The notes under the pieces were generated by a model, which made no database searches, was not told where the DNA came from, and saw nothing but the letters and a program-made list of their open reading frames with translations. Of a stretch of DNA of 50,337 nt, positions 1,682 through 23,333 are shown one piece after another; within the stretch, counting starts at the first letter, position 1, and each line of letters opens with the position of its first letter. A program made the position numbers and the translations under genes. Source of the DNA: Acetobacterales bacterium (GTDB lineage Bacteria > Pseudomonadota > Alphaproteobacteria > Acetobacterales > Acetobacteraceae); the NCBI GenBank assembly GCA_038229175.1, contig JBBROR010000001.1, forward strand, positions 1 to 50,337, written 5' to 3'.

Positions 1682-2107
1682 TCAGTCTTTCGTAACTTTG
1701 TTATGGAAAAAGGCGTGGCGCGCCATCATGTCGCCGAACGCATTCACGGTGTCGGCCGCCCGCTGGCTCATGCCCAGCTCGGGAAGGCGCTTGCGCAGCT
1801 GGTACACAATGGCCTTCTGCATGCCAATGGCGATGCCGCTCAGGACGACGACGACGACGGGCGCCCAGCGCGTCACAAGGCCGGCGAACGTCTCGAAGGA
1901 CGACGGCGTTGTGGTGCCATCGTCCAGCAGGGACTTCGTGGCGAGGCTCGAAAGCAGCACCAGGAGCGCCCCCAGGATCGTATAGCGCTGATTGCGGGAG
2001 TGATGCACGCGCAAAGCGAAGTAGCGCTGTACCTGGTGCAGCTGCTGTTGTGTCAGGCCAAGGCCCTGCAGCGCTTCCGGCGCTTCATAGAATCTATTTT
2101 TTTTCAT
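1682..2107 (-). CDS. Membrane protein, 141 aa
   Basis: ORF with hydrophobic segments (ILGALLVLLSSLA and PVVVVVLSGIAIG), tightly packed with its neighbours. Confidence 0.55.
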   Translation of the reverse strand: MKKNRFYEAPEALQGLGLTQQQLHQVQRYFALRVHHSRNQRYTILGALLVLLSSLATKSLLDDGTTTPSSFETFAGLVTRWAPVVVVVLSGIAIGMQKAIVYQLRKRLPELGMSQRAADTVNAFGDMMARHAFFHNKVTKD

Positions 2108-2765
2108 CTTGCGCGCTCTCTAGTTTGTGTGCAGCCATTTCGGCCGTAACGTCACTCTCAAGTTTTTGCATGACCTTGACCAATTTTTCGCTGGTCCCTT
2201 CCTGGTATGCCGGCCAGGGAATGAATGGTTCGCCGAGTGGATTGCCAAACTGGTACGTGGTGGGGCAACGGTAATTGAAAGCCGCGCCTTCCTTTCTAAC
2301 GATGAGATACGAGGCCTTGCATTCGATACCGGCTTGTGTGGCCAACTCGGTCGCCATTATTCCGACCGATTCCTTGTCCCACCAAAAGGCGACGTGATTG
2401 GCGCCAGAATAAGCCAGATGCAAACCGGCTAATGCGCTCGCCACCCACGCGCCGCCGTAGGGCTTTTTGGCATTGCGAAAAAGCGCGTATACGCTGGCGA
2501 TGAAGATCACAACGCCGCCAATCAAGAACAGGATCGGTGAATAATTCTTGTCGTGCCCTGGGCGCCAGGATGCCGATGGCAAAACCCCTGTAAGGAAGCC
2601 CATGCAGACAAAGCCGCACCCGATGATGGCGAGCATAAGATACGGCGAAATGCCTGGTGTACTTTCCCCTCCCTGTTGGGTTGCATTCGCAATTTTCACA
2701 AACACCTTTACCGCGTAGTACGTTGGAATCATCGTCGCGAATATTACGGCGAGCATGAAGGTCAT
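2094..2765 (-). CDS. Polytopic membrane protein, 223 aa
   Basis: 4-5 predicted TM segments in the N-terminal two thirds and a soluble C-terminal tail. Start overlaps the upstream gene by 4 nt. Confidence 0.6.
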   Translation of the reverse strand: MTFMLAVIFATMIPTYYAVKVFVKIANATQQGGESTPGISPYLMLAIIGCGFVCMGFLTGVLPSASWRPGHDKNYSPILFLIGGVVIFIASVYALFRNAKKPYGGAWVASALAGLHLAYSGANHVAFWWDKESVGIMATELATQAGIECKASYLIVRKEGAAFNYRCPTTYQFGNPLGEPFIPWPAYQEGTSEKLVKVMQKLESDVTAEMAAHKLESAQDEKK

Positions 2766-3001
2766 GCCTTGCTCCTTTCTTTGCGTATCCGTTGAAGGGC
2801 TGTCTTGAAGCCCGTAAGCGACATGGTGAAGCCCTTTTCGTGCAGGGTGGCCAGCACCGCTTCGCGGCGCACGCCTTTTGCCAGCGTCGCCTCGACCTCA
2901 TCGAAAATGTCGCGCAAGCGCGCCGTTTCCGACCTGGCCGAGTCGTCCTTGGCCAGCGACCGCAGCGCCTCCCCTACGTCCTTCTCAGTAGCTTTACCCA
3001 T
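2762..3001 (-). CDS. Small DNA-binding protein, 79 aa from ATG 3001 (alternative TTG at 3046). Paralog of the N-terminal half of the StbA-like protein at 27205..27654
   Basis: AGGA sits 7 nt upstream of ATG 3001. The two proteins align almost without gaps: ...ALRSLA...RLRDIFDEVEATLAKGVRREAVLATLHEKGFTMSLTGFKTALQRIRKE against ...SLRALA...RIRELYPEIENAKKAGVSLEKILETLNEQGLDMKLASFKTMLHRVRKE. Confidence 0.6.
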   Translation of the reverse strand: MGKATEKDVGEALRSLAKDDSARSETARLRDIFDEVEATLAKGVRREAVLATLHEKGFTMSLTGFKTALQRIRKERSKA

Positions 3002-3049
3002 TGTCCAATCCTGTGAGTCGTCAAAAGACGCTATCTTAACAATCAATCA

Positions 3050-4036
3050 CTATTCCCCGGTAAAATCTGCTCCCCCCGCGCCGCTACACGGATCAGGCTG
3101 GCTATCGCCGGCCGAACCGCCTTGATTAGCCTCAATGAAGGTATTCGTTCCCAGGCTATCGTGCACCGGCTCGGCAGCACCGCAGGCGTGCGCAGCACCG
3201 AACAGCGACAGGACCAGCAGGGGATTGAACAAGTCGTCCGTGAGACTCGACGCCGGCGCCGGCACAGTCGCTTTGCTCGCGGTCGATGACGGGGCGGTTT
3301 CGACGGCCGGCGCCGGCGGCGCAAGCCGGCCAGACCGCGCCCCCACGGTCGCCAGCTGCTCGCCCACCGGCACCATGTCGGGAGGGCTGAAGTATGTCGC
3401 CCGAAACCGCAGCTCCTGGCAAATCTTCCCGTAAGCAGTATTTTGATCGCTGCTCATCGGCACGCCGCCGTGTACCTGGTCGAGCATCGGAATAAGCTTG
3501 TTGTTGATCGCCGCCAGGGACGATTGAATGTCCTGGGCGCGTTCAAACTCGCGTTTGGCGTCGCCGGTCAAACCATCGGCGCCCGCATCGACCACGGCAT
3601 TCCAATGCTGCAGCAGCTCATCGACCTGGCCGATGGTCGCCAACAACTTGCCCACGGCATCACGCACCTGATTGCTGCGCTCGGCCTTCTCCATGCGTGA
3701 CGCAATGGCGACGCCGACAACGGCCACGGCTACAACCACAGCGGCCGACACCATCCAATGCGCCGCGATCCAGCCGAAGACGCCCAGCTGGTGCAGGCCG
3801 TACAGCAAGCCGCCAACAATGGCGATTGCCGCGACCCCGCCCATTACAAGCACTTCGCTGCCTTCGCCGAAAGCCGTCCTGGCGCCGATGGCGAGGACCA
3901 GGACCATGAGCATGTACGGGGCGAAGCCCAGCACAGTATCGGCCAATGCTTCAATTTGCATCCCTGCCCCTGTCGCTGCCTGGGCAAAAGCGATTGAGGG
4001 CAGCAGCAGTGCCGCCAGCAATGAGAGCTTACGCAT
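3050..4036 (-). CDS. Signal-peptide-bearing polytopic membrane protein, 328 aa from MRKLSLLAALLLPSIAFAQA, translationally coupled to the PspA-like gene
   Basis: Signal peptide, then about four TM segments, a coiled/soluble middle and an Ala/Pro/Ser-rich tail. Start overlaps the upstream stop by 8 nt. Confidence 0.65.
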   Translation of the reverse strand: MRKLSLLAALLLPSIAFAQAATGAGMQIEALADTVLGFAPYMLMVLVLAIGARTAFGEGSEVLVMGGVAAIAIVGGLLYGLHQLGVFGWIAAHWMVSAAVVVAVAVVGVAIASRMEKAERSNQVRDAVGKLLATIGQVDELLQHWNAVVDAGADGLTGDAKREFERAQDIQSSLAAINNKLIPMLDQVHGGVPMSSDQNTAYGKICQELRFRATYFSPPDMVPVGEQLATVGARSGRLAPPAPAVETAPSSTASKATVPAPASSLTDDLFNPLLVLSLFGAAHACGAAEPVHDSLGTNTFIEANQGGSAGDSQPDPCSGAGGADFTGE

Positions 4037-4736
4037 GGTCGCCTCCCTGCGCGCAGATGGCGGCACCGCCCGCCGACACCAGGCCGAGGCCCTGCAGCTT
4101 CGCATTGACGGCATCGAGCCGCACGTAATCGCTCAGGCGCTTGTCCACATCGAGCGCGCTTTTGTCCTGGGCCATGTCGGCGAGCGAAGCGGCCTTGGCC
4201 TCTTTGCGGTCCACCTGTTCTTCCAGCTGATCGAAGTCGATACCAGGGCGATTGCCCACATTGCCGAGCGAGCGAGCGGCGCGTGTTTCGGCGTCCGCGA
4301 CCTTGCTACGGGCGCCGAGCAGGGCCGCCCTGTTCTCCTTGTCCTTCAAGTCCTTGCGCAGATCGGACAGGCGTATCTTGAGCTGGTCCAGCATCGGCGA
4401 CAGGCGGGCGATGTTGGCGCCGTAGCTGTGCGCCATTTCCTCGCTTCGCACCTGGTGGTGCACCGCCTCGACGGCCGCCGTCTTGTCGCCGGCAGCTGCT
4501 GCCTTTTCAGCCACGCGGCCCCACTTGTCCGCGTCCTCGGTGGCCTTGCTGCACTGGTGCTGCATCAAGCGCAGTTCGGCGGCCACGTCGGAGACGCTCT
4601 CTTCGGCCTGGCCGATCTGGCGCTGCAGCTCGCGCAGGCCATGGCGCGCCGAGCGGCCGGCGTCGCCGAACTTGTCGAGCAAGTCGTGCAGCGCACCGGA
4701 AATTTGAATCCAAGTCTTACGAAGCAAACTAAACAT
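4029..4736 (-). CDS. PspA/IM30 (phage shock protein A) family protein, 235 aa
   Basis: All-helical coiled-coil protein. It aligns by eye to E. coli PspA along its length: [22 protein letters not shown] against [36 protein letters not shown] against [40 protein letters not shown] against [40 protein letters not shown] against FESFERRIDQMEAEA. Confidence 0.7.
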   Translation of the reverse strand: [235 protein letters not shown]

Positions 4737-4790
4737 GGCGATTCTCCCAAAGGATTAAGTAGCGAAAGCGTGGCGCTGGTCTGCATCCAC

Positions 4791-4837
4791 AGTGAATCCA
4801 TTGTGAATCCAATGTGAATCCGCTGTCAAGCGGATTT
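4791..4837. promoter_or_regulatory. Three TGTGAATCC direct repeats at 11-bp spacing, followed by the inverted repeat GAATCCGC-tgtcaa-GCGGATTt, in the divergent pspA-like/resolvase promoter region
   Basis: agtgaatccat tgtgaatccaa tgtgaatccgc tgtcaagcgga tttcgc read directly from the sequence. Confidence 0.6.
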
Positions 4838-4872
4838 CGCAAAGAATCGGTATGTTTTGGGTATCCCCTTAT

Positions 4873-4930
4873 CAGACCTGTCCAATCTGGTACAGTATCG
4901 TTTCCATCGGGACTTAAAACAGACCGGTCC
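4873..4930. promoter_or_regulatory. Candidate res (multimer resolution) subsites upstream of the resolvase gene
   Basis: cagacctgtcc (4873-4883) and cagaccggtcc (4920-4930) are repeated, and ctgtccaatctggtacag is an imperfect dyad. Placement immediately 5' of a serine recombinase gene is typical for res. Confidence 0.3.
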
Positions 4931-4960
4931 CGCGAAACCATCCTAGTGAGACTTGACCAG

Positions 4961-5602
4961 ATGACGACCTTCATACGCGCCTACCTGCGCGCCTCGACCG
5001 ACGAGCAAGACGCGCAGCGCGCACGCGGACAGCTCGACACCTTCGCGGCCGAGCATGACGTGGTGATATGCACCTACTACGCCGAGAACGAGTCAGGCGC
5101 CCGCCTGGATCGGCCGGAGCTGTTCCGGCTCCTGGCGGACAGCCGGCCAGGCGACATACTGCTGGTCGAGGACGTGGACCGTCTCTCGCGCCTGAACAGC
5201 GAGGAATGGGACCGGCTCAAGCGCATGATCCGCGAGCGGGACGTGCGCGTGGTCGCCGTCAATGTGCCGACTACCTGGCAGCACCTGGCGCCGATCCGCA
5301 GCGACTTCGATGCGCGCATGTTCGGCGCCATCAATGACATGCTCATTGACATGCTGGCGGCGATTGCGCGGCGCGACTACGAGCAGCGGCGCGAACGTCA
5401 ATCGCAGGGGATCGCCAAGGCCAAGGCAACGGGCAAGTACAGCGGCCGCAGAAGCGACACGGCCCGCTACGACGCGATCAATCGACTACTCGCAAGCAAC
5501 AGCTCATGGAGCGAAGTGCAGCGGACCATCAGCTGCAGCCGCAGCACCATCAGCGCGGCGATTCGACACGCGAACAAGGCGAACCAGGTCACTCCAAAAT
5601 GA
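4961..5602 (+). CDS. Serine recombinase / resolvase, 213 aa from ATG 4961
   Basis: N-terminal catalytic motif MTTFIRAYLRASTDEQ (Ser in RAST), DRLSR motif and a C-terminal HTH (SWSEVQRTISCSRSTISAAI). Confidence 0.85.
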   Translation: MTTFIRAYLRASTDEQDAQRARGQLDTFAAEHDVVICTYYAENESGARLDRPELFRLLADSRPGDILLVEDVDRLSRLNSEEWDRLKRMIRERDVRVVAVNVPTTWQHLAPIRSDFDARMFGAINDMLIDMLAAIARRDYEQRRERQSQGIAKAKATGKYSGRRSDTARYDAINRLLASNSSWSEVQRTISCSRSTISAAIRHANKANQVTPK

Positions 5603-14655: not shown

Positions 14656-17600
14656 TCAGCGTGACAGCTGCTTTTGCTTCTGCTGCTCGGCTTCCTTGTC
14701 GGCGACCTGGCCGCGACCGTTCTTGTATTGAACGGTCACCACCTGGCCAGGCGTCGGCACCTTTTCAAGGTCGCGCACCTGGTGCACCACGGCCGCCCGC
14801 TTGCTGGTCGCTTGCGTCGCGTGGTAGCCCTCTACCCCCAACACCTCCCCGGTATGCCTGGTATTGGGGCCTGGTTGCTTTACTTCCGCGCCCTCCCCCA
14901 GCTGCTGGCGGGCGACGCCGGTGGCACGCTCGCGGCTTTGCTCGACCGCCTGGCCGAGCGCCTTCTCGACCTGGGCCTTGACCGCCGGCAGGCCCTCATG
15001 CACATGCAAGTCGTTGAAATCGGAGAGCTTGCCCGCCACCTTGAACTCCGGGAAGGCGACGCCTACCTGGTGTTTTTGGGCGGCGGCCGTCGCCTTCTCG
15101 ACCCCGACGTTCTGCTGCGCGTGCTTGTCGTTGTCGCCCATGATGAAAATCGGGCTGGTCGGATGGCGCGCCTTGATGGCGCCCACGACCGCATCGAGGT
15201 TGCCAGAGTCGAACGCCACGGCGACCGCCTTGCCGGTCGCCTGGTGCAAGCTGGCGCCGGTCGCGTAACCTTCCGCCACCAGAACCTCGGCGCCTGGCTT
15301 GATTTCGCCGATCAAGTGCATGTTCCCCGACTTGCGGCCGCCCTTCTCGAACATCTTGGCCGCGCCCTCGGCCGGCGGGATCGACTGCACCGACCACAGC
15401 TTGCCGTCCACGTCGCGCACCGGCACGACCAGCTTTTCGCCGTCGAACTTGACGCCGTGGGCCGCTACCTGTTTGCGCGCCAGGTAGGCATTTTCACCAG
15501 CTGGCGGCGCGTCAGGCAAGCGGTCGAACTTCGCGGTCGCCTTCGTGCTGGCCTTCGCATGCTGCTCGGACAGCTCGGCCGCCCGCTGCTGCTTGACGAT
15601 CTGCGCCTGGGCGGCCAGCTGCGCCTGCTCTTCCTGGGACAGCTGCGCCCCGCTCATGGTCCAGTTCTCCTTCGAGCCACTTGCGAAGTTCTGGATATGG
15701 CCGCTCGGCTTGCCATCGAGGTAGCCGACATACGCGCCGTCGCGGTTGCCCGCCTTGCCTTTGGCCACCGGCACGCGCTGCAGCTTACCGTCCATCACCG
15801 GCTCATCCTTCAATTCCAGGCCGGCGGCCTTCAGCGCCTTGGCGAATTCCACTTTCGGATCGAGGTTCTGTTTAAGCTCGGCGTCCTGGGCGACTTCGCG
15901 CTTTGGTAGCCACTTGTCCAGCTTGGCCAGGTCCGCGCCTGGCGGTGCGTACCAGGTCTTCGCCCCCTTGTCCCATTTGGCGCCGGCGTCGCTCGCCTCG
16001 TTCTTGTCGCGGAACGGCACGGCAAGCACGGTGCGCTCGCCGGACTTGTCCGGCGCCGGCCGCTCATCGACCGACCGCACCGGCGCCGGCGCCGGCCGCT
16101 CCTGGTCGGGCTTGGGCAACCACTTGGCCAGCGGCGCCAGGTCGGTCCCAGGCGGCACAAACCACTCCTTGGCCTCCTTGTCCCACTTCGCACCGTGTAC
16201 CTTGGCCGCTTCCTTTTCCTTGAAAGGCACGTCCAGGACGGTCCTGGCGGTCGCCAGGGCGCGATCCGGCTCGACCAGGCTAATCGGCCTGCCCTTGCTC
16301 GGATCGTCGCTCAGAGGGCCGCCGGCTACGACTTCCTGGCCAACGGCCGGCAGCTGGCGGAAATCCATCTTGTGAAGGGCCACGGCCTCTTTCTCGCCGG
16401 TCTGGACGACGAAGTGGTGTTTCGATTCCGCGATCACCACCCCGCGCGCCGGCTGATCGCCATCGACTACGGCGAATCGCTCCACTTCGCCAAGCTTCGC
16501 TTTCACGCGGCCCGCAAGCTGGCTAAAGTCAGGACTACTGAATGCATCGACGCTTTCTCGCACCAGAGCGCCGAATTCCGGCGTATTTCGGTCTGGTACG
16601 TCGTTCGGCCGCAGTGCCGATTCCGGGGCTGTCCTGGCGGTCGCCAGGGCGCGATCCGGCTCGACCAGGCTGATCGGCCTGCCCTTGCTCGGATCGTCGC
16701 TCAGAGGGCCGCCAACGACTATTTCCTGGCCAACGGCGGGCAGCTGGCGGAAATCGAGCTTGTGGAGGGCCACGGCCTCCTTTTCGCCGGTCTGCAGCAC
16801 GAAACTATGCTTTGACTCGGCGATGACAACGCCGCGCACCGGCTCTTCGCTGGCCAGCATGCCGAAGCGGGCGCCCTCGCCCAGCTTCTGCTTCACCTGG
16901 CCTTCGAGCTGGTGATAGTCGCCGCTGTCGTTGCGCTCGGCGATGCTTTGCCGAACCAGGGCGCCGTATGCCGGCGTCCCACGGTCTGGAATGTCGTGCG
17001 GCCGCAGACCCTGGGCGAGCGCCGGCGCCTGGTCCACGTCCCGCGTGCGGTCGCGGTCCAGCTGCAGCACGTAGTCGGTGATCTTTTCCGCGTCCCTGGC
17101 GGCCCGGAAAATCTCGTTCTTGTCCTCTTTGAGGACGCTTACCCAGGATTTGACATACGCGGCATGCTGGCCGGGATCGTGCGGGATGCCCAGCTTGTCG
17201 GCCATGAAGTAGCTCGACAGCTCGGCCCGCAGCTCTTCCTTGGCATATTCGGCGCTACCGAACCCACCACCGAATTCGCGCTTGAGGCGCGATTCGTGGC
17301 CGGTCCAGTGGCCCAGCTCGTGCAACGCGGTCGAGTAGTAGGCCGCCTGGTCGGGAAACTGACCCTTGGGCGGCAAATGGATTTCGTCCCGCGATGGGCT
17401 GTAGAACGCACGATCGTTCTGATCGTGGTGGATTTTGGCGCCGGACGAATCAAGAATTCTTTCGGCGCGCTCGACCGGATTCCAGTCGTGCTTCCTGGGC
17501 GCCTTGTCCAGCTCGGGCACTCCATCCATTTGCTGCGCATTGAAGACAACGGCGCGGAATACTTCCGGCCGCTCAAGCCGGACATTGACCGTCTTCTGCT

Positions 17601-17940
17601 TGCCGTCGTCGCCCAGGATCGGGCGGCCCTTGTCGTCCACCGCAGGCCGCTCTTCGGCCATCTTCCAGTATTCGATGAGCGTGCCCTTCTCACCTTTGCG
17701 CACTTGCCAGCCCTCGGCCGCCGCCTGCTTGTACGTCGCCCATCGAGGATCATTTTTGCCCTGCATGGCCAGGTACAGGGAATTAGCGCCCCGATACTCC
17801 TTTTCCGTGGTCGGATTGTATGGCAAGCGGCCAATCCCTTGCGCTGCATCCCACGGTTTTTGCCAGGGCGCCGTCCCGGCTTCCAGCTGCTCTATCAGCT
17901 TGTCGGTTAGCGCCTGGCGGTAATCGTTTCCTTCGGCCAT
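14656..17940 (-). CDS. Multidomain ArdC-like antirestriction/ssDNA-binding plus zincin domain, two tandem 130-aa repeats, two DUF5710-like repeats, Toprim DNA primase and a C-terminal beta module; 1094 aa
   Basis: AGGAGG SD. ArdC-N motif LIEQLEAGTAPWQKPW. Metalloprotease motif ALHELGHWTGH. Repeats VPFKEKEAAKVHGAKWDKEAKEWFVPPG and VPFRDKNEASDAGAKWDKGAKTWYAPPG. Toprim block VLVAEGYATGASL...IFIMGDNDKH. Confidence 0.85.
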   Translation of the reverse strand: MAEGNDYRQALTDKLIEQLEAGTAPWQKPWDAAQGIGRLPYNPTTEKEYRGANSLYLAMQGKNDPRWATYKQAAAEGWQVRKGEKGTLIEYWKMAEERPAVDDKGRPILGDDGKQKTVNVRLERPEVFRAVVFNAQQMDGVPELDKAPRKHDWNPVERAERILDSSGAKIHHDQNDRAFYSPSRDEIHLPPKGQFPDQAAYYSTALHELGHWTGHESRLKREFGGGFGSAEYAKEELRAELSSYFMADKLGIPHDPGQHAAYVKSWVSVLKEDKNEIFRAARDAEKITDYVLQLDRDRTRDVDQAPALAQGLRPHDIPDRGTPAYGALVRQSIAERNDSGDYHQLEGQVKQKLGEGARFGMLASEEPVRGVVIAESKHSFVLQTGEKEAVALHKLDFRQLPAVGQEIVVGGPLSDDPSKGRPISLVEPDRALATARTAPESALRPNDVPDRNTPEFGALVRESVDAFSSPDFSQLAGRVKAKLGEVERFAVVDGDQPARGVVIAESKHHFVVQTGEKEAVALHKMDFRQLPAVGQEVVAGGPLSDDPSKGRPISLVEPDRALATARTVLDVPFKEKEAAKVHGAKWDKEAKEWFVPPGTDLAPLAKWLPKPDQERPAPAPVRSVDERPAPDKSGERTVLAVPFRDKNEASDAGAKWDKGAKTWYAPPGADLAKLDKWLPKREVAQDAELKQNLDPKVEFAKALKAAGLELKDEPVMDGKLQRVPVAKGKAGNRDGAYVGYLDGKPSGHIQNFASGSKENWTMSGAQLSQEEQAQLAAQAQIVKQQRAAELSEQHAKASTKATAKFDRLPDAPPAGENAYLARKQVAAHGVKFDGEKLVVPVRDVDGKLWSVQSIPPAEGAAKMFEKGGRKSGNMHLIGEIKPGAEVLVAEGYATGASLHQATGKAVAVAFDSGNLDAVVGAIKARHPTSPIFIMGDNDKHAQQNVGVEKATAAAQKHQVGVAFPEFKVAGKLSDFNDLHVHEGLPAVKAQVEKALGQAVEQSRERATGVARQQLGEGAEVKQPGPNTRHTGEVLGVEGYHATQATSKRAAVVHQVRDLEKVPTPGQVVTVQYKNGRGQVADKEAEQQKQKQLSR
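16241..17020. repeat. Intragenic tandem duplication, 2 x 390 bp (130 codons each), inside the primase gene
   Basis: 16241-16323 and 16631-16713 differ at about one base. The remainder of each unit is clearly homologous but diverged. Confidence 0.85.
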
Positions 17941-18147: not shown

Positions 18148-18768
18148 CTATTGAACTTGCTGGCCGTCGGTCGGTGGCGGCAGCGGATTGCAGTCGATAT
18201 ACGGAATGCTCACGAGCGCGCCGTACTTGCTGTTATCGACCATATCCTTTTGAATCAGCGACCAGATGAATTGATCGTCATTGTCGTACTCAGCCTTCCA
18301 GGTGCCGAGCGCGACGCGCTTGGGCTTCATGCCGTCCAGTCCAGCGCGACGGGTAGCGACCGTTTGCATCGCGGCGCTTGTGTAGGCCCCATGGCCGGCA
18401 TAGATGCTATAGCCAACGTATGAGCCGGTGGTGCCGTCATTGCTTGGAAACGGCAAGCTGAATGTGATCGAGCCAGGCAGGCCGCCGTCGTAGCGGGCCT
18501 GGAACGGATAGAGGCCGCCCTGGTATGTCGCCCAGCCCGAGGGCGTCATTACCGCCCCGCTCTTCTGATCGGCCGACAGCACGCCAAGCCAGAACAGGCC
18601 AGGCTTGCCGGCGTCGCCGCCAGGTCCATAGCTGATGTTCAGCACCGGCGAATCGCCCGTGTTGTACACGCCTTCGGCCGCACCGCCGCACGACACCCAG
18701 GCATATCCGCCCGCCTGCGCTGCAGCCGTAGCCGCAACCAACAAAACACCCAAGATCATTTTCTTCAT
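18148..18768 (-). CDS. Secreted protein of unknown function, 206 aa from ATG 18768
   Basis: AAGGAG 6 nt upstream. Signal peptide MKKMILGVLLVAATAAAQAGG. Gly/Tyr/Ser-rich and beta-looking. Confidence 0.65.
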   Translation of the reverse strand: MKKMILGVLLVAATAAAQAGGYAWVSCGGAAEGVYNTGDSPVLNISYGPGGDAGKPGLFWLGVLSADQKSGAVMTPSGWATYQGGLYPFQARYDGGLPGSITFSLPFPSNDGTTGSYVGYSIYAGHGAYTSAAMQTVATRRAGLDGMKPKRVALGTWKAEYDNDDQFIWSLIQKDMVDNSKYGALVSIPYIDCNPLPPPTDGQQVQ

Positions 18769-18804
18769 CAAATACTCCTTCAAGTTATGGGAACAACTAG
18801 ACCA

Positions 18805-21800
18805 CTAAAACGCCTTATCCGCCTTGCCTTTTTGGCGTGCTTGTTCGCGCTCCAAATCAGCAAAGCGCCAAGTCGCAAGGCGGCGCTGATTAACATCATC
18901 GTTGTTCTTTTCCACCTTCGCCCGCATGCGGTCGCCGGCTTTCAGAGCAACGTCGTTCGGTGCGGGCTGACGAATGCTTGTCAGCTCGCGCCCGGTATCG
19001 ACAACCACCGTCGTGTAGTTGTCTTCCTTCTTCACCAGCAGGACGCGCCCGCTGATCTGGCGGCCTGGCTGCGCGTCCAGATGGCGCACCGGCTTGCCCA
19101 ATTCCCTCGATAGATCGTCAAGCACTTGATCGACTCCTTTCTGTTGTGCTGCTTCCTGCAGCTCGATACCCTTACGCCAAACATTGGCCCTGACCGTAAA
19201 GCTCGGGTCTTTCGGATCGAGGCCGCGCTGTTGCCATACCTGGGCGCGTTCCTGCAGCGCCGCCTGCAGCGGCGCCGACGTGGCCAGCTGCTCCTGCTGC
19301 AGCATCCAGTCGAGCCGGTTCAATTGCCGCGTCTTGATAGCATTGGCTATGTCCTCGCCCGACTCTGCCCACTCCACATTTTTCCGCCAGACCGTGGCCG
19401 CCTTGCCGAAGTCCGGCGCCTGCACATCGACCCCGCGCTGCTTCCAGACCTCGGCGCGCTCCTGGATGGCCAGCGTGACCGGATGGCCAGGCGGCAGCTG
19501 GATCGGCTTGAGCTGCTGCGCCATCAGGTCCAAACGGTTCGGCCGGGGATCGGCGACCATCGCCGGCAGCTGCTCGGGCTTGACGACCGCCGCCATCGCC
19601 TTCCCCTTGGCGTCAACACCGACGAACAGGCTTGCCTGTTCGGCGACGTACTTGTGCTGCAGGCCCAGCGCTTCGAGCTGCAGCGCCGTCAGCTGCTGCT
19701 TGCGGCCGTAGGTTGGAGCGACCGCAATGCTCTCGCGGCCCTTGGCCAGCACGGTCGCCAGCATCGAGCCTTTGCCGTCGAATTCGACAGTCTTCACGCC
19801 GGCGTCCTCGAAATTGAGCCGGTCGTGCGCGACCGCCGATTTCGGCCGCACCAGGGCGCCTTCGACTTCAACAGCGCCGGCGGCCTGCAGGCGGCCAAGG
19901 CGCGCCGCTGCAGCATCGCGGAACGCGCCGGCTACCGTCTTTTTCAATTCCGCCGGCACGACGACCTTGCCGCCTTTGAGCAGTTCGGCATCGAGCAACG
20001 CGGGCGACAGTGCGCGGCCGTACTGTTCGACCCGTTGCGTGGTGCCGAGAACCTTTCCGTCGCGGTCCTTGCGCTCGACCACTTCCAGGGCGACGTATTC
20101 GCCGGCCTTCAGGCCGCCCTCGCCCCGCAGCTTCTGGACCTTCGGCGACTGGTTCAGGTAATGCACCTTCCCGTCGAGGCCTTCGACCATGATGTAAGGC
20201 CGATTCGTCGCCTCATTAAGGCCGGTCCCGACAACCTTGCCGGCGACGCGCTGGCCCAATTCTTTCAGCTCAGTGACGACAAGCGGCGCGCTCGGATCGG
20301 AAATCATTTCCCGATGCGCGAACTTGGTCTTGAGGCGATCCTGGGATACCTGCATTTGGCGCAGCGCCGTTTCGAGCGCCGGCGACAGGCGCCACGACTT
20401 ATTCCCGGTCTTCTCGGCCAGGCCCATGTCGGACAGCTGCACCAGGCGCCGAATCTGGCGAAGCCTGGTATCGCGGGCCTTCTCGCTACCTGGCGGCTCG
20501 CCCTCGAAGCTCACTTCATTGTTCACGGCCCGCTTCTTCAATGAGCGATCAATCTCGGTGAATCGCTGCTGCGCCACTTGCCGATCCAACGACTCGGCCA
20601 CGTCGCGCTCGGAGCGGTAGCCCAGCTCCTTCGTGGCCAGCTCCTGGGCACGAATGCGCGAACCCTCGGCGATGTATTCCGGCGAGATTTCAAGGCTCTT
20701 GCCCTTGTCGTCCATCCCACGGATGGCGACGTGGGCGTGCGGGTGATCGGTGTTGTAGTGATTGGCCGCGACCCACTCCAACTTCGTGCCCAGGTCTTTC
20801 TCCATTTGCTTCATCAGGTCGCCGACGTGCTTGCGCAAGTCCATGCGGTCGCCGAACTCGGGACTGATAATCAGCTTGAACATACGTTCGTCGCCGCCCT
20901 TCTGCCATGCGTTCAGCGTGGCCGAAATCGCCACGCTATGCCCGCCGCTGCCGTACCCGACGCCGCCGGCGTCTAGTCCGCCAACAGCAACGCGATCCGT
21001 TCCAGGTTTGCCGCCACTTCCCCGTCGCACGCGGTCAGCGTCTTGGGTTCCTCGCTGGACCACGATTTCAGATGCATCACCCTGCAGTAGCAATTCACTC
21101 CGTCCGGCCCGCTGAACCATACCGACGCTGGACAGGCTTCGCAGATCGTTGATGGACTTGGCCGAAGGCGGGCTGCCAACCGCTGCAGCGTAGGACTGAC
21201 GTAAGGCGGAAACTCGCCCTCGGTCGTTGAGGTCGGGAGCGGCGCCGTATCGGTCGGCGATGCTATCGCCGGCGCCGGTGCCGGTGTCGCGGTCGCCGGC
21301 GGTGTATCGGTCGGGTTCAGCAATGTCGGATCGCTCATGGTCAATATCCTTTCTCTGTGATTTGATAGACGGGTCGGCCAGCTCGCGGCCGACCTCAATT
21401 TCTGCAAGCAGTTCGGGGCGCTTGTTCAGCTCTTTTTCCTGGGACGATTCGCGCTCGATGTACTTGCCGTGCGCGCCCCACTGGCCATCCCCTTGATTCT
21501 TCGAGTACACCCAGCGGACAGAAACGCGCTGCAGCGGCTTGGCCGCAGTCGCGCCGGCGCCACGCACCCCGCCGGTATTGCCGAGGCGGCCAGCCGCCGA
21601 TCCGGCGGCCGAGCTGCCCCGCTGGCGACTGGACACGCCAGTGCGCCCGCCGCCCCCACCGGACGACGAGCGCAGCATTTGCTTGACCTTCTTGAACGCC
21701 GTGGAAATTTGCTTATCTTTCAAGCTTCCACGGCCGGGGAGTTTCAGCGCGAGGCGAATGTCTTCGCTCTCACGCTCGCCCCCCTTCCCTTTGCCGAATA

Positions 21801-21807
21801 TTCCCAT
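18805..21807 (-). CDS. Conjugative relaxase, VirD2/MOBP-like, 1000 aa
   Basis: Motif I region RVSVRWVYSKNQGDGQWGAHGKYIERE. Motif III HYNTDHPHAHVAIRG preceded by DERMFKLIISPE. Long C-terminal extension. Confidence 0.9.
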   Translation of the reverse strand: MGIFGKGKGGERESEDIRLALKLPGRGSLKDKQISTAFKKVKQMLRSSSGGGGGRTGVSSRQRGSSAAGSAAGRLGNTGGVRGAGATAAKPLQRVSVRWVYSKNQGDGQWGAHGKYIERESSQEKELNKRPELLAEIEVGRELADPSIKSQRKDIDHERSDIAEPDRYTAGDRDTGTGAGDSIADRYGAAPDLNDRGRVSALRQSYAAAVGSPPSAKSINDLRSLSSVGMVQRAGRSELLLQGDASEIVVQRGTQDADRVRRGSGGKPGTDRVAVGGLDAGGVGYGSGGHSVAISATLNAWQKGGDERMFKLIISPEFGDRMDLRKHVGDLMKQMEKDLGTKLEWVAANHYNTDHPHAHVAIRGMDDKGKSLEISPEYIAEGSRIRAQELATKELGYRSERDVAESLDRQVAQQRFTEIDRSLKKRAVNNEVSFEGEPPGSEKARDTRLRQIRRLVQLSDMGLAEKTGNKSWRLSPALETALRQMQVSQDRLKTKFAHREMISDPSAPLVVTELKELGQRVAGKVVGTGLNEATNRPYIMVEGLDGKVHYLNQSPKVQKLRGEGGLKAGEYVALEVVERKDRDGKVLGTTQRVEQYGRALSPALLDAELLKGGKVVVPAELKKTVAGAFRDAAAARLGRLQAAGAVEVEGALVRPKSAVAHDRLNFEDAGVKTVEFDGKGSMLATVLAKGRESIAVAPTYGRKQQLTALQLEALGLQHKYVAEQASLFVGVDAKGKAMAAVVKPEQLPAMVADPRPNRLDLMAQQLKPIQLPPGHPVTLAIQERAEVWKQRGVDVQAPDFGKAATVWRKNVEWAESGEDIANAIKTRQLNRLDWMLQQEQLATSAPLQAALQERAQVWQQRGLDPKDPSFTVRANVWRKGIELQEAAQQKGVDQVLDDLSRELGKPVRHLDAQPGRQISGRVLLVKKEDNYTTVVVDTGRELTSIRQPAPNDVALKAGDRMRAKVEKNNDDVNQRRLATWRFADLEREQARQKGKADKAF
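20973..21338 (-). CDS. Candidate overlapping gene nested in an alternative frame of the relaxase gene; 121 aa, Pro/Thr-rich N half and Cys-rich C half
   Basis: AAGGA 8 nt upstream of ATG 21338. Third-position G/C is higher in this frame than in the relaxase frame over the same nucleotides (hand count). Motif ICEACPASVWFSGPDGVNCYCRVMHLKSW...TACDG. Confidence 0.45.
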   Translation of the reverse strand: MSDPTLLNPTDTPPATATPAPAPAIASPTDTAPLPTSTTEGEFPPYVSPTLQRLAARLRPSPSTICEACPASVWFSGPDGVNCYCRVMHLKSWSSEEPKTLTACDGEVAANLERIALLLAD

Positions 21808-21982
21808 GCACTCACCCCGATGTATTGCGTAAATTATACTCCAAGAAAGACGATTAAAAGCGCTATTTCATAGTGCGTTGCCATGCAATTGATGGGCGTC
21901 GAGGTCGCTAAAAAAAGCAATTTGCGTCATCCTGAAACATGATATATTGAGCGCCTGAATCACCAACTAAGGAGTATCCGCA
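21808..21982 (+). other. Candidate oriT region, with an ATCCTG nic-core-like hexamer at 21929-21934, in the divergent intergenic region next to the relaxase gene
   Basis: gcgtcATCCTGaaac resembles the IncP/Ti-border nick core YATCCTG|Y. AT-rich context. Position immediately upstream of the relaxase operon. Confidence 0.4.
21822..21839 (-). promoter_or_regulatory. 18-nt box variant (GTATAATTTACGCAATAC in gene direction) 14 nt upstream of the relaxase ATG
   Basis: 14/18 match to the traG and trbK-position boxes, in the same orientation relative to the gene. Confidence 0.45.
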
Positions 21983-22249
21983 ATGAGCAGTATCAAGCAT
22001 GACCAGCTGAAAATGCTGGCCGCGAACAGCGGCGTCAAAGGGGTAACGATAGTCGGCGATCCTTCCGGTTTCTGTGTCAATGTTACAACATTGAGCGGCG
22101 ATAAACTGTTATTTACCAAGACTGGCCAGGCGCGCTTCTTCAAGAAAATGGAAACGCTCCTTGACTACCTCAAGAACGAAATTGGTATTGGCAAGGCGAC
22201 GATCCAGTTCGACCGCTGGAACCCTGCACAGCAAGTTCTCAAACACTGA
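21983..22249 (+). CDS. Hypothetical protein, 88 aa; first gene downstream of the putative nic site and upstream of repA
   Basis: Strong SD (TAAGGAG). Lower GC than the backbone. Confidence 0.65.
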   Translation: MSSIKHDQLKMLAANSGVKGVTIVGDPSGFCVNVTTLSGDKLLFTKTGQARFFKKMETLLDYLKNEIGIGKATIQFDRWNPAQQVLKH

Positions 22250-22262
22250 GAGGAAACAAGGC

Positions 22263-23333
22263 ATGAGCGAAGGTCAAACTCCTAACGTGGCAGCAGCTGT
22301 ATCGAAGAAGCTGGACGCGGTAAATGCGAAACTGAAGGTGCGAACGGCCGAAGCGGCAATTCGCAAGTACGTGCCCGAACAATTGCAGTTCTGGCCGGAC
22401 GACAGGCGCGCTATTGCGAACGAATTGGCCAGGTGCGCCCTCTTCCAATGCCGCAACGATAACGAGGCCCGCGAATACCTTGATAACGTCGAGCTGTACG
22501 TGCTGGGCGAAGGCTCGATGACCTACAAGGGCGAGGAACTGCGGACCAAGGACGAAGACCTGTTCGTCACGCTCGCGCACTGTGCCCGCGATCTACCGTC
22601 CGGGAAAATGGTGGTGCGTATCACGAGCAGCGAAATCTGCCGCATGAACGGATGGCGCCAGTCGCAGCAATACTTCAACCTGATCTTTCAATCTGTTCAG
22701 CGCATGAAGGGCGGCGTCATCACCGTGTTTTCGCGGCGCCTGGCCAAGGCACTGAAATGCCAGCGTGCGCTCGATGCCGGCGCATCGGACACCGAACTGG
22801 CGCAGTTGTACGACGAACTCGAAGCCTTCGAGAACGCCGAACGGTCGTTATTGACCTTAGAAGAAAAAGGCGAGGAAGTGGGCGGCATCATGGTTTCGCT
22901 CATCAGCGGCGATCCAACGTTCACCGGCGGCAAGTGCGTTAAAGACGGCATCCCACAGGGCAGTCTGAGCTGGGAAATCACCCTCGACAAAAAGCTTGTA
23001 TCGCTGTTCGCCAGGCCCTACCTGACGCTTGTTGACTTCCAGACGCGCAAGGAGCTGTCAGGAACCGGCAAGCGCCTGCAAGCCTACTACTTGAGCCACA
23101 AGAAGCCGCTCGACGTGAAGCTGCGCAATCTTGAGAAGATGCTAGGCCGCAAAAACAAGTCGCTGGCCGCGCTGAAATTCCAGATCGGCGAAGAGCTGGA
23201 AATTCTGAAGGCCAAGGGCGACATTGAAGAATTCAGCTTCAAGAAATCCGCAGACGGCACGGACTGGCTTGTGTGCGTCAGCCGCGAGAAGAAGGAGCCG
23301 AAGAAGGACCCGAAAAAAGATCCTCCAAAATAA
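22263..23333 (+). CDS. Plasmid replication initiator (RepA/TrfA-like, iteron-binding), 356 aa from ATG 22263
   Basis: GAGAGGA SD. Position immediately 5' of the iteron cluster. Lys/Pro-rich tail. The family call is partly contextual. Confidence 0.7.
   Translation: MSEGQTPNVAAAVSKKLDAVNAKLKVRTAEAAIRKYVPEQLQFWPDDRRAIANELARCALFQCRNDNEAREYLDNVELYVLGEGSMTYKGEELRTKDEDLFVTLAHCARDLPSGKMVVRITSSEICRMNGWRQSQQYFNLIFQSVQRMKGGVITVFSRRLAKALKCQRALDAGASDTELAQLYDELEAFENAERSLLTLEEKGEEVGGIMVSLISGDPTFTGGKCVKDGIPQGSLSWEITLDKKLVSLFARPYLTLVDFQTRKELSGTGKRLQAYYLSHKKPLDVKLRNLEKMLGRKNKSLAALKFQIGEELEILKAKGDIEEFSFKKSADGTDWLVCVSREKKEPKKDPKKDPPK

Follow-up and report, generated by a model that had tools for sequence, protein, structure and literature searches.

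The nested open reading frame

The window analysed here is a 50,337 nt stretch of DNA from an Acetobacterales bacterium (assembly GCA_038229175.1, contig JBBROR010000001.1, positions 1 to 50,337) that carries an IncP-like conjugative backbone, of which TrfA, a Trb type IV secretion system, TraG as coupling protein, a TraE-like topoisomerase III and an ArdC-primase-KfrB fusion were recognised. An open reading frame (ORF) of 1000 codons on the minus strand (18805..21807) codes for an RlxS/VirD2-like relaxase. Inside this gene, on the same strand, lies a second ORF of 121 codons (20973..21338), which starts at an ATG at 21338 and ends with a TAG stop (20973-20975); its frame is +1 with respect to that of the relaxase, and it overlaps relaxase codons 157-278. 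A first-pass annotation, made without database searches, had proposed this nested frame to be a genuine coding module that the relaxase gene simply reads through. The sequence comparisons described below identify the nested ORF as traH, a homologue of the relaxosome accessory gene of the IncP-1 plasmids (RP4/RK2). We estimate the probability that it is a real, expressed-type traH homologue, nested in a relaxase gene that is read through, at roughly 85%.

Translation of the 121 codons from the ATG at 21338 gave exactly the peptide proposed initially. In a direct check of the sequence, the minus strand reads AGAGAAAGGATATTGACC-ATG at 21338; the AAGGA reported 8 nt upstream of the start codon, a Shine-Dalgarno (SD)-like motif, was located at 21347..21351 (minus strand), within relaxase codons (..RKDIDHE..). 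The window contains a single candidate nested ATG, and it is this ATG that the SD-like motif precedes. Codon counts over the overlap found G or C at the third position (GC3) in 90 of the 122 codons of the nested frame and in 75 of the 122 codons of the relaxase frame, which reproduces the earlier hand counts. The GC3 of the relaxase frame was 0.61 in the overlap and 0.77-0.82 in the rest of the gene, in line with the higher value noted earlier for the catalytic block. The rare codons CGA, GGA, CTA and AGT, described as abundant in this part of the relaxase frame, occur 12 times in 78 overlap codons, as against five times in 705 other relaxase codons.

The length of the nested ORF is uninformative in this GC-rich DNA. 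The same 3.7 kb contain 23 ORFs of at least 60 amino acids (aa), so length alone does not rise above chance, and the significance of the ORF comes from comparative evidence only. One of the 23 is a 472-codon frame antisense to the relaxase gene (19126-20544, plus strand), which was treated as a GC-rich artefact. Such an abundance of long ORFs, the 472-aa antisense one included, is what favours the alternative of a chance ORF: an alternative frame would merely stay open in DNA of 62% GC, and its Cys-rich peptide would be a by-product of the relaxase. The homology, conservation and fold data presented in the following sections bear on it.

The nested product is a homologue of IncP-1 TraH

BLASTP comparison of the nested product with the annotated TraH of plasmid pKJK5 showed 47% identity over 102 aa (E 8e-27). 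With the 119-aa TraH ORF of RP1, which is the RP4/RK2 plasmid (record CP152306.1, locus L039, traH at 2348-2707), identity was 54% in the core, over 67 aa (E 1e-25). The first-pass annotation had cited RP4 traH as a precedent for a gene encoded inside a relaxase gene in another frame. The arrangement is indeed the same, but RP4 traH is more than a precedent, since the nested ORF is its sequence homologue. This homology to an experimentally characterised protein speaks against a chance ORF.

A tblastn search with the 121-aa product, one of the checks proposed at the outset, matched 882 plasmids. Among the matches listed, each coincided with a relaxase gene or a 'hypothetical protein', or with no listed feature at all. 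In IncP-1 records with an annotated traH, such as that of pKJK5, the match falls in traH; in pKJK5 it is in frame with the annotated gene, which itself lies inside traI. A megablast of the region against plasmids gave no match, and hence a near-identical reference is lacking. The nested product gave nothing meaningful when scanned against Pfam and NCBIfam, the only score being a sub-threshold one for TIGR04061 (17 bits, with a cut-off of 124).

A profile search of 1.84 billion cluster representatives showed the TraH family to comprise 593 clusters at E ≤ 0.001, and 285 at E ≤ 1e-10 (clusters at 50% identity). The family median is a protein of 114 aa with a net charge of -6, and 94% of the members are net acidic; the window product has 121 aa and a net charge of -6. 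A CxxC-x13-17-C-x15-22-C pattern is carried by 156 of the 164 family proteins retrieved. The only invariant residues in a 150-sequence alignment were four cysteines and one tryptophan (C27, C30, W35, C46 and C65 of the core). The core signature of the family reads SPTL..RP..T.CE.CP.S.W...C.CR.MH..W....P.....CDG, and all the invariant residues are present in the window product.

The two halves of the protein differ. The N-terminal half (residues 1-44; 21207..21338, minus strand) is Pro/Thr-rich and variable in sequence and length among homologues. It had a low predicted confidence (pLDDT) in a full-length model, which came from an 18-sequence AlphaFold run with an overall pLDDT of 59.7 and was discarded; this half is probably disordered. 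The remainder (residues 45-121; 20976..21206, minus strand) corresponds to the globular TraH domain and contains the invariant C66, C69, W74, C85 and C104. AlphaFold2 modelling of residues 40-121 with the 150-sequence alignment gave a pLDDT of 95.6 and a predicted TM-score (pTM) of 0.84. In the model, a three-stranded sheet is accompanied by a C-terminal helix and by two short helices, one of which is the site of the CxxC. The four invariant cysteines suggest that this Cys4 domain would bind a metal, probably zinc, in a treble-clef-like manner. A Foldseek search of the model against PDB and BFVD found no relative at E ≤ 0.001 (best E 0.43, TM 0.28), and a PDB sequence-profile search with TraH found none at E ≤ 1. 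Weak Foldseek matches to WW-domain, eIF2-beta and zinc-ribbon structures, none of them at E ≤ 0.001, were discounted as evidence. The predicted Cys4 fold is thus unclassified, although modelled with confidence, and we count it among the new elements of this analysis.

Selection in the overlap acts mainly on the nested frame

For comparative purposes, 39 loci were collected, comprising the window, plasmid records, 23 genome contigs and three metagenomic contigs. Identity of the core among them spans 31-84%, and the alignment of the 61-aa core is essentially gap-free. Every one of the 39 has a TraH frame that stays open over the core and lies +1 to a long enclosing relaxase ORF. Stops in the nested frame next to an intact relaxase frame, which would have argued against a coding module, were found in none of the 39. 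None of the outcomes that the first-pass annotation had named as refuting was encountered, and the idea that the nested frame is a genuine coding module is well supported by its being open and conserved throughout. A free-standing traH was sought among the same loci and none was found.

Across all loci, the mean pairwise aa identity was 55% for the nested frame and 37% for the relaxase frame. The mean pairwise differences at codon positions 1, 2 and 3 of the nested frame were 0.33, 0.29 and 0.51. When the same sites are read in the relaxase frame, position 1 is the most variable and position 3 the least, the reverse of what a coding sequence shows. In the RlxS-type loci, the corresponding values for the nested core were 0.25, 0.25 and 0.48, while the catalytic block, read in the relaxase frame, showed a normal signature (0.40, 0.31 and 0.59). 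In these loci the TraH core is more conserved (61% aa identity) than the catalytic block (50%).

Close pairs of loci gave a similar picture. Counted in the nested frame over 66 core codons, 19 of the changes between the window and its closest relative, L036, are synonymous and 10 non-synonymous; counted in the relaxase frame, five are synonymous and 29 non-synonymous. For L036 and L037 the numbers were 15 synonymous and seven non-synonymous in the nested frame, and one synonymous and 23 non-synonymous in the relaxase frame. The ratios for the window and L036 bear out the proposal that constraint falls mainly on the nested frame and that the relaxase reads through. In addition, an in-frame ATG with an upstream SD-like motif was present in 26 of 30 loci, where a background rate of 5.4% per ATG would predict 4.9.

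To what extent TraH itself dictates the relaxase frame was estimated by a simulation in which each TraH core was recoded with random synonymous codons. Recoding predicted an identity of 0.29 in the relaxase frame, where 0.37 was observed; most of the conservation seen in that frame (LR.LS..GVV......E.LLPGDAP..) is therefore forced by TraH. The identity at third positions of the nested frame was 0.49, with 0.40 predicted. Only about 11% of the synonymous recodings of the core remained free of stops in the relaxase frame, which implies that the openness of the relaxase frame is itself selected. At the level of sequence comparison, purifying selection in the overlap acts mainly on the nested frame.

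These data leave practically no room for the chance ORF. It is refuted by the homology to TraH, the codon-position signature, with third-position variation and synonymous excess concentrated in the nested frame, and the frames that are open in 39 of 39 loci despite core identities as low as 31%. The conserved pairing of SD-like motif and ATG and the confidently predicted fold point the same way.

The relaxase reads through traH as an insertion in its catalytic domain

The host relaxase shows matches to Pfam Relaxase at residues 296-377 and to DUF3363 at residues 452-556. The NCBIfam RlxS model matches residues 303-552 with 228.9 bits, the cut-off being 850, and only profile positions 129-378 are covered; by these profile scores the host relaxase is a relative of RlxS below the equivalog level. 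Three relaxase motifs could be located, all on the minus strand. Motif I (21448..21486) reads GQWGAHGKYIERE and includes Tyr116, the putative catalytic residue by analogy with Y29 of VirD2. Within it (GAHGKYIERE), H113, Y116 and R119 are invariant in an alignment with DUF3363 relaxases that have or lack the insertion described below. The motif II region (20857..20892) reads DERMFKLIISPE, with D306, F310, I313 and S315 invariant. Motif III, the His triad HYNTDHPHAHV, lies at 20728..20760, with H350, T353, P356, H357 and H359 invariant.

Alignment with DUF3363 relaxases from Pseudomonas plasmid pBYT5-1 and from a Bradyrhizobium plasmid showed relaxase residues ~121-293 (~173 residues; 20929..21447, minus strand) to be an insertion, located directly after motif I and before motif II and missing from the insertion-less L030 and L032. 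It holds the SD-like motif, traH and short flanks. In ordinary RlxS/DUF3363 relaxases, such as those of Tn4371-type integrative and conjugative elements and of Xanthomonas and Pseudomonas plasmids, about 35 residues separate motif I from motif II. The first-pass annotation had described this gap as much shorter in VirD2-like relaxases and had suggested aligning homologues around this segment; both the shorter gap and the suspected insertion proved right. No TraH-like frame was found in the three insertion-less loci (L030-L032), and the insertion was covered in only three of 342 plasmids with a related relaxase. The fraction of Gly, Ser, Asp and Arg is 0.45 in the insertion and 0.29 in the catalytic part, consistent with the low-complexity linker first described. 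The relaxase mostly just reads through the overlap, as a G/S/D/R-rich linker, and it must do so because traH separates the conserved motif I, upstream, from motifs II and III, downstream.

A different partition of the locus would be three separate genes, namely a short N-terminal ORF, traH and a relaxase of ~715 aa starting after traH. Loci L036, L037 and L038 are in fact annotated in this way, with TraH followed by a 715-aa relaxase 39 nt after the traH stop. Nevertheless, the relaxase frame is open from the upstream ATG through traH in all RlxS-type loci, L036-L038 included, and the low share of stop-free recodings indicates that this openness is selected. Moreover, the 715-aa product would lack motif I, with H113, Y116 and R119, which the insertion-less relaxases share. 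We therefore regard three separate genes as improbable.

Even less probable is that the Cys4 domain forms part of the relaxase polypeptide, through a programmed +1 frameshift or through indels in the assemblies. Three of the 164 retrieved proteins are fusions of the two frames: P0073 and P0141 are TraI N-termini that run into a TraH domain, and in P0110 the TraH domain continues into the TraI frame. They are the sole hint of frame-switching products and probably derive from indels or assembly errors. The other 161 proteins show no relaxase fusion, being 160 stand-alone proteins of 68-185 aa plus P0061 (302 aa). A separate TraH stop and an uninterrupted relaxase frame were seen in all 39 loci, and an SD-like motif plus ATG precedes the Cys4 domain. 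A ribosome that changed to the TraH frame in the window would stop before it reached motifs II and III, so that no relaxase could result. A traH gene with its own start, inside a relaxase gene that is read through, accounts for the locus better than either of these alternatives.

traH is found in several relaxase contexts in a constant +1 register

Mapping of Pfam domains in the host relaxases showed traH to occupy different positions. In the window and 12 other loci, all with RlxS-type relaxases, it separates motif I from motif II. In TraI-type hosts it was found between the Relaxase and TraI_middle domains (L012, L027), between TraI_middle and LPD7 (L003), or between LPD7 and TraI-like_C (RP1, pKJK5 and relatives). 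In MOBF relaxases it sits between the TrwC relaxase domain and the helicase (L041, Moraxella bovis, 2031-5360; L022), in a MOBQ relaxase after MobA_MobL (L033, 2624-4447), and in a Campylobacter MobP1 relaxase at the C-terminus (L034). In P. aeruginosa plasmids it is +1 in an LPD7-containing ORF of 1277 codons (L040, 1932-5765); the 'hypothetical protein' of P. aeruginosa pHPA0118-2 is likewise nested, +1, in a 1277-codon ORF. The MOBF, MOBQ and L040 nestings are well outside the MOBP/IncP-1 setting in which TraH is known. The position in the window does not match the IncP-1 linker (LPD7|TraI-like_C), a location that is not universal in the family.

In the recoding simulation, the two alternative frames were about equally easy to keep open (11% and 7%). 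A constant +1 register in spite of this suggests that the dual-coding segment has been inherited or exchanged as a unit. A neighbour-joining tree of the 61-aa core groups the loci broadly by relaxase type, although not without some mixing; the core of the TraI-type L012, for instance, is 69% identical to that of the window, above most RlxS-type loci. Cassette transfer cannot be proved from so short and unsupported a tree.

At somewhat less than even odds, we propose traH to be a widespread, unannotated dual-coding cassette, always +1 and never free-standing, that has been carried or exchanged among at least five relaxase architectures (RlxS-type, three TraI/MobA(P) linkers, MOBF TrwC-helicase, MOBQ MobA_MobL and Campylobacter MobP1). 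In this plasmid lineage, the Tyr-bearing motif I would then be tethered to the rest of the active site through a disordered linker of ~170 residues, and the product would be an unclassified Cys4 protein serving as a general relaxase partner. A search of the literature found no paper on TraH homologues outside IncP-1 or on their variable position, although publication elsewhere is possible. What is also new here is how broad the family is and how its position varies while the +1 register stays constant, together with the type of the host relaxase and the insertion site inside its catalytic domain.

Annotation of traH and neighbouring genes

The nested ORF can now be named correctly; annotation pipelines overlooked traH in most of the records examined, and it goes unannotated in every close relative of this plasmid. 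In the PLSDB gene tables, traH is unlisted in RP1 (CP152306.1) and in the five best plasmid matches (L002-L006), and it is listed only in some older, manually annotated IncP-1 records. Gene callers that do detect traH truncate the relaxase, with loss of the catalytic tyrosine. In L036 (4001-6531), L037 (4001-6603) and L038 (308-2910), the relaxase as called omits the motif I Tyr, although upstream the frame is open for ~1000 codons; we regard the 715-aa relaxase calls as a systematic annotation artefact caused by the nested gene. TraH lacks a Pfam or NCBIfam model despite its 593 clusters and 882 plasmids; among those that carry it are resistance plasmids of Neisseria, Campylobacter, Pseudomonas and Enterobacteriaceae. 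As a gene obligatorily nested +1 in relaxases that are unrelated, it offers a clean natural system for the maintenance and movement of overlapping genes and for the role of TraH in conjugation.

Several other features surround the relaxase gene in the window. In the region 21808-22249, upstream of the relaxase start (21807), a 175-nt gap presumably contains the origin of transfer (oriT) and a promoter. It is followed by a divergent 88-aa ORF (21983-22249, plus strand) with a weak, sub-threshold ParC-like match, which overlaps the start of a TrfA-like ORF (22161-23333, plus strand). The upstream layout is identical in L036 and L037. Directly downstream of the relaxase gene, a 211-aa ORF without a Pfam match (18148-18783, minus strand) has an N-terminus that resembles a signal peptide (MKKMILGVLLVAATAAAQA); a hypothetical gene of ~200 aa occupies the equivalent position in L002 (11893-12483), L004 (5456-6064) and L036 (6567-7172). 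Further downstream, ArdC-N, a zincin metallopeptidase, two DUF5710 domains, Toprim and KfrB are found together in a 1094-aa protein (14656-17940, minus strand), which resembles a TraC-type primase with an anti-restriction-like module fused to it.

Possible function of the nested TraH

Published work describes RP4 TraH as an acidic protein, encoded inside traI in another reading frame, that stabilises the association between TraJ and TraI at oriT (PMC7314908, citing Pansegrau 1990; PMC3614916; PMC4175270). TraH of the window would be translated by internal initiation on the relaxase mRNA, which would lead to co-expression of TraH and relaxase. The protein may then bind the relaxase and oriT-bound partners and stabilise the relaxosome, as reported for RP4 TraH. 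The dual-coding segment would be inherited, and probably exchanged, as a unit, thereby keeping its +1 register constant despite the different linkers of the different relaxase families. Stabilisation of the relaxosome through relaxase binding is the function that we favour, with some reserve.

TraH could be genuine and yet have another main role, as an adaptor between relaxase and coupling protein, as a regulator of relaxase translation or of tra genes, or as a transferred effector. The hosts of traH have very different accessory proteins (MOBF TrwC-type, MOBQ MobA_MobL, Campylobacter MobP1), the window has no adjacent traJ, and no structural relative hints at DNA binding, all of which would fit such a role. 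It seems unlikely, though less so than the other alternatives considered here, given that the only experimental data in the literature searched assign TraH to relaxosome stabilisation and that a function directed at the relaxase agrees with the obligatory linkage to relaxase genes.

Several points weigh against the interpretation of the locus as a whole. The traH gene of this plasmid is known from its sequence, and its function has been assigned entirely from in-vitro work on RP4 TraH, which is ~54% identical in the core only. No traJ-like gene was found directly upstream of the relaxase gene in the window, nor was a TraJ counterpart identified; this calls for caution because TraJ is one of the two partners whose interaction RP4 TraH is reported to stabilise. 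Metal binding is proposed from the four invariant cysteines and nothing else. The modest excess of identity over that predicted by recoding may reflect shared ancestry (phylogenetic inertia) or weak constraint on the relaxase frame. Finally, transfer as a unit is argued from a frame coincidence with a probability of ~0.03-0.08 for about six contexts, which is only modestly significant.

Comparison with known systems

In ColE1, mbeB and mbeD lie inside mbeA, an example of nested mobilisation genes. For RP4, the nesting of an accessory gene in a relaxase gene was already known in 1990, and mobB of RSF1010 is another case. The latter, an accessory mobilisation gene in another frame of the relaxase gene mobA/repB, is taken here as an analogous arrangement (PMC2200642). 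The host relaxase compares well with ordinary RlxS/DUF3363 relaxases, with which its motif I Tyr, motif II, His-triad motif III and DUF3363 domain align.

The nested gene itself is closest to IncP-1 traH, as in RP4/RK2/RP1, R751 and pKJK5. Both products share the CxxC...C...C plus Trp signature, a size of 119-121 aa and an acidic character; both genes are in the +1 register inside a relaxase gene, and the internal AAGGA-N8-ATG start of the window is also present in pKJK5. They differ in that the window product continues past the CDG motif into an additional C-terminal helix, absent from IncP-1 TraH, and in that no traJ is adjacent to the relaxase gene of the window. The host here is an RlxS/DUF3363-type relaxase, whereas that of IncP-1 is TraI/MobA(P); traH lies here between motifs I and II, whereas in RP1 it covers TraI codons ~514-633, between LPD7 and TraI-like_C. 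The module is therefore less novel than the first-pass annotation implied, and its unusual part is the position of traH and the type of relaxase that hosts it.

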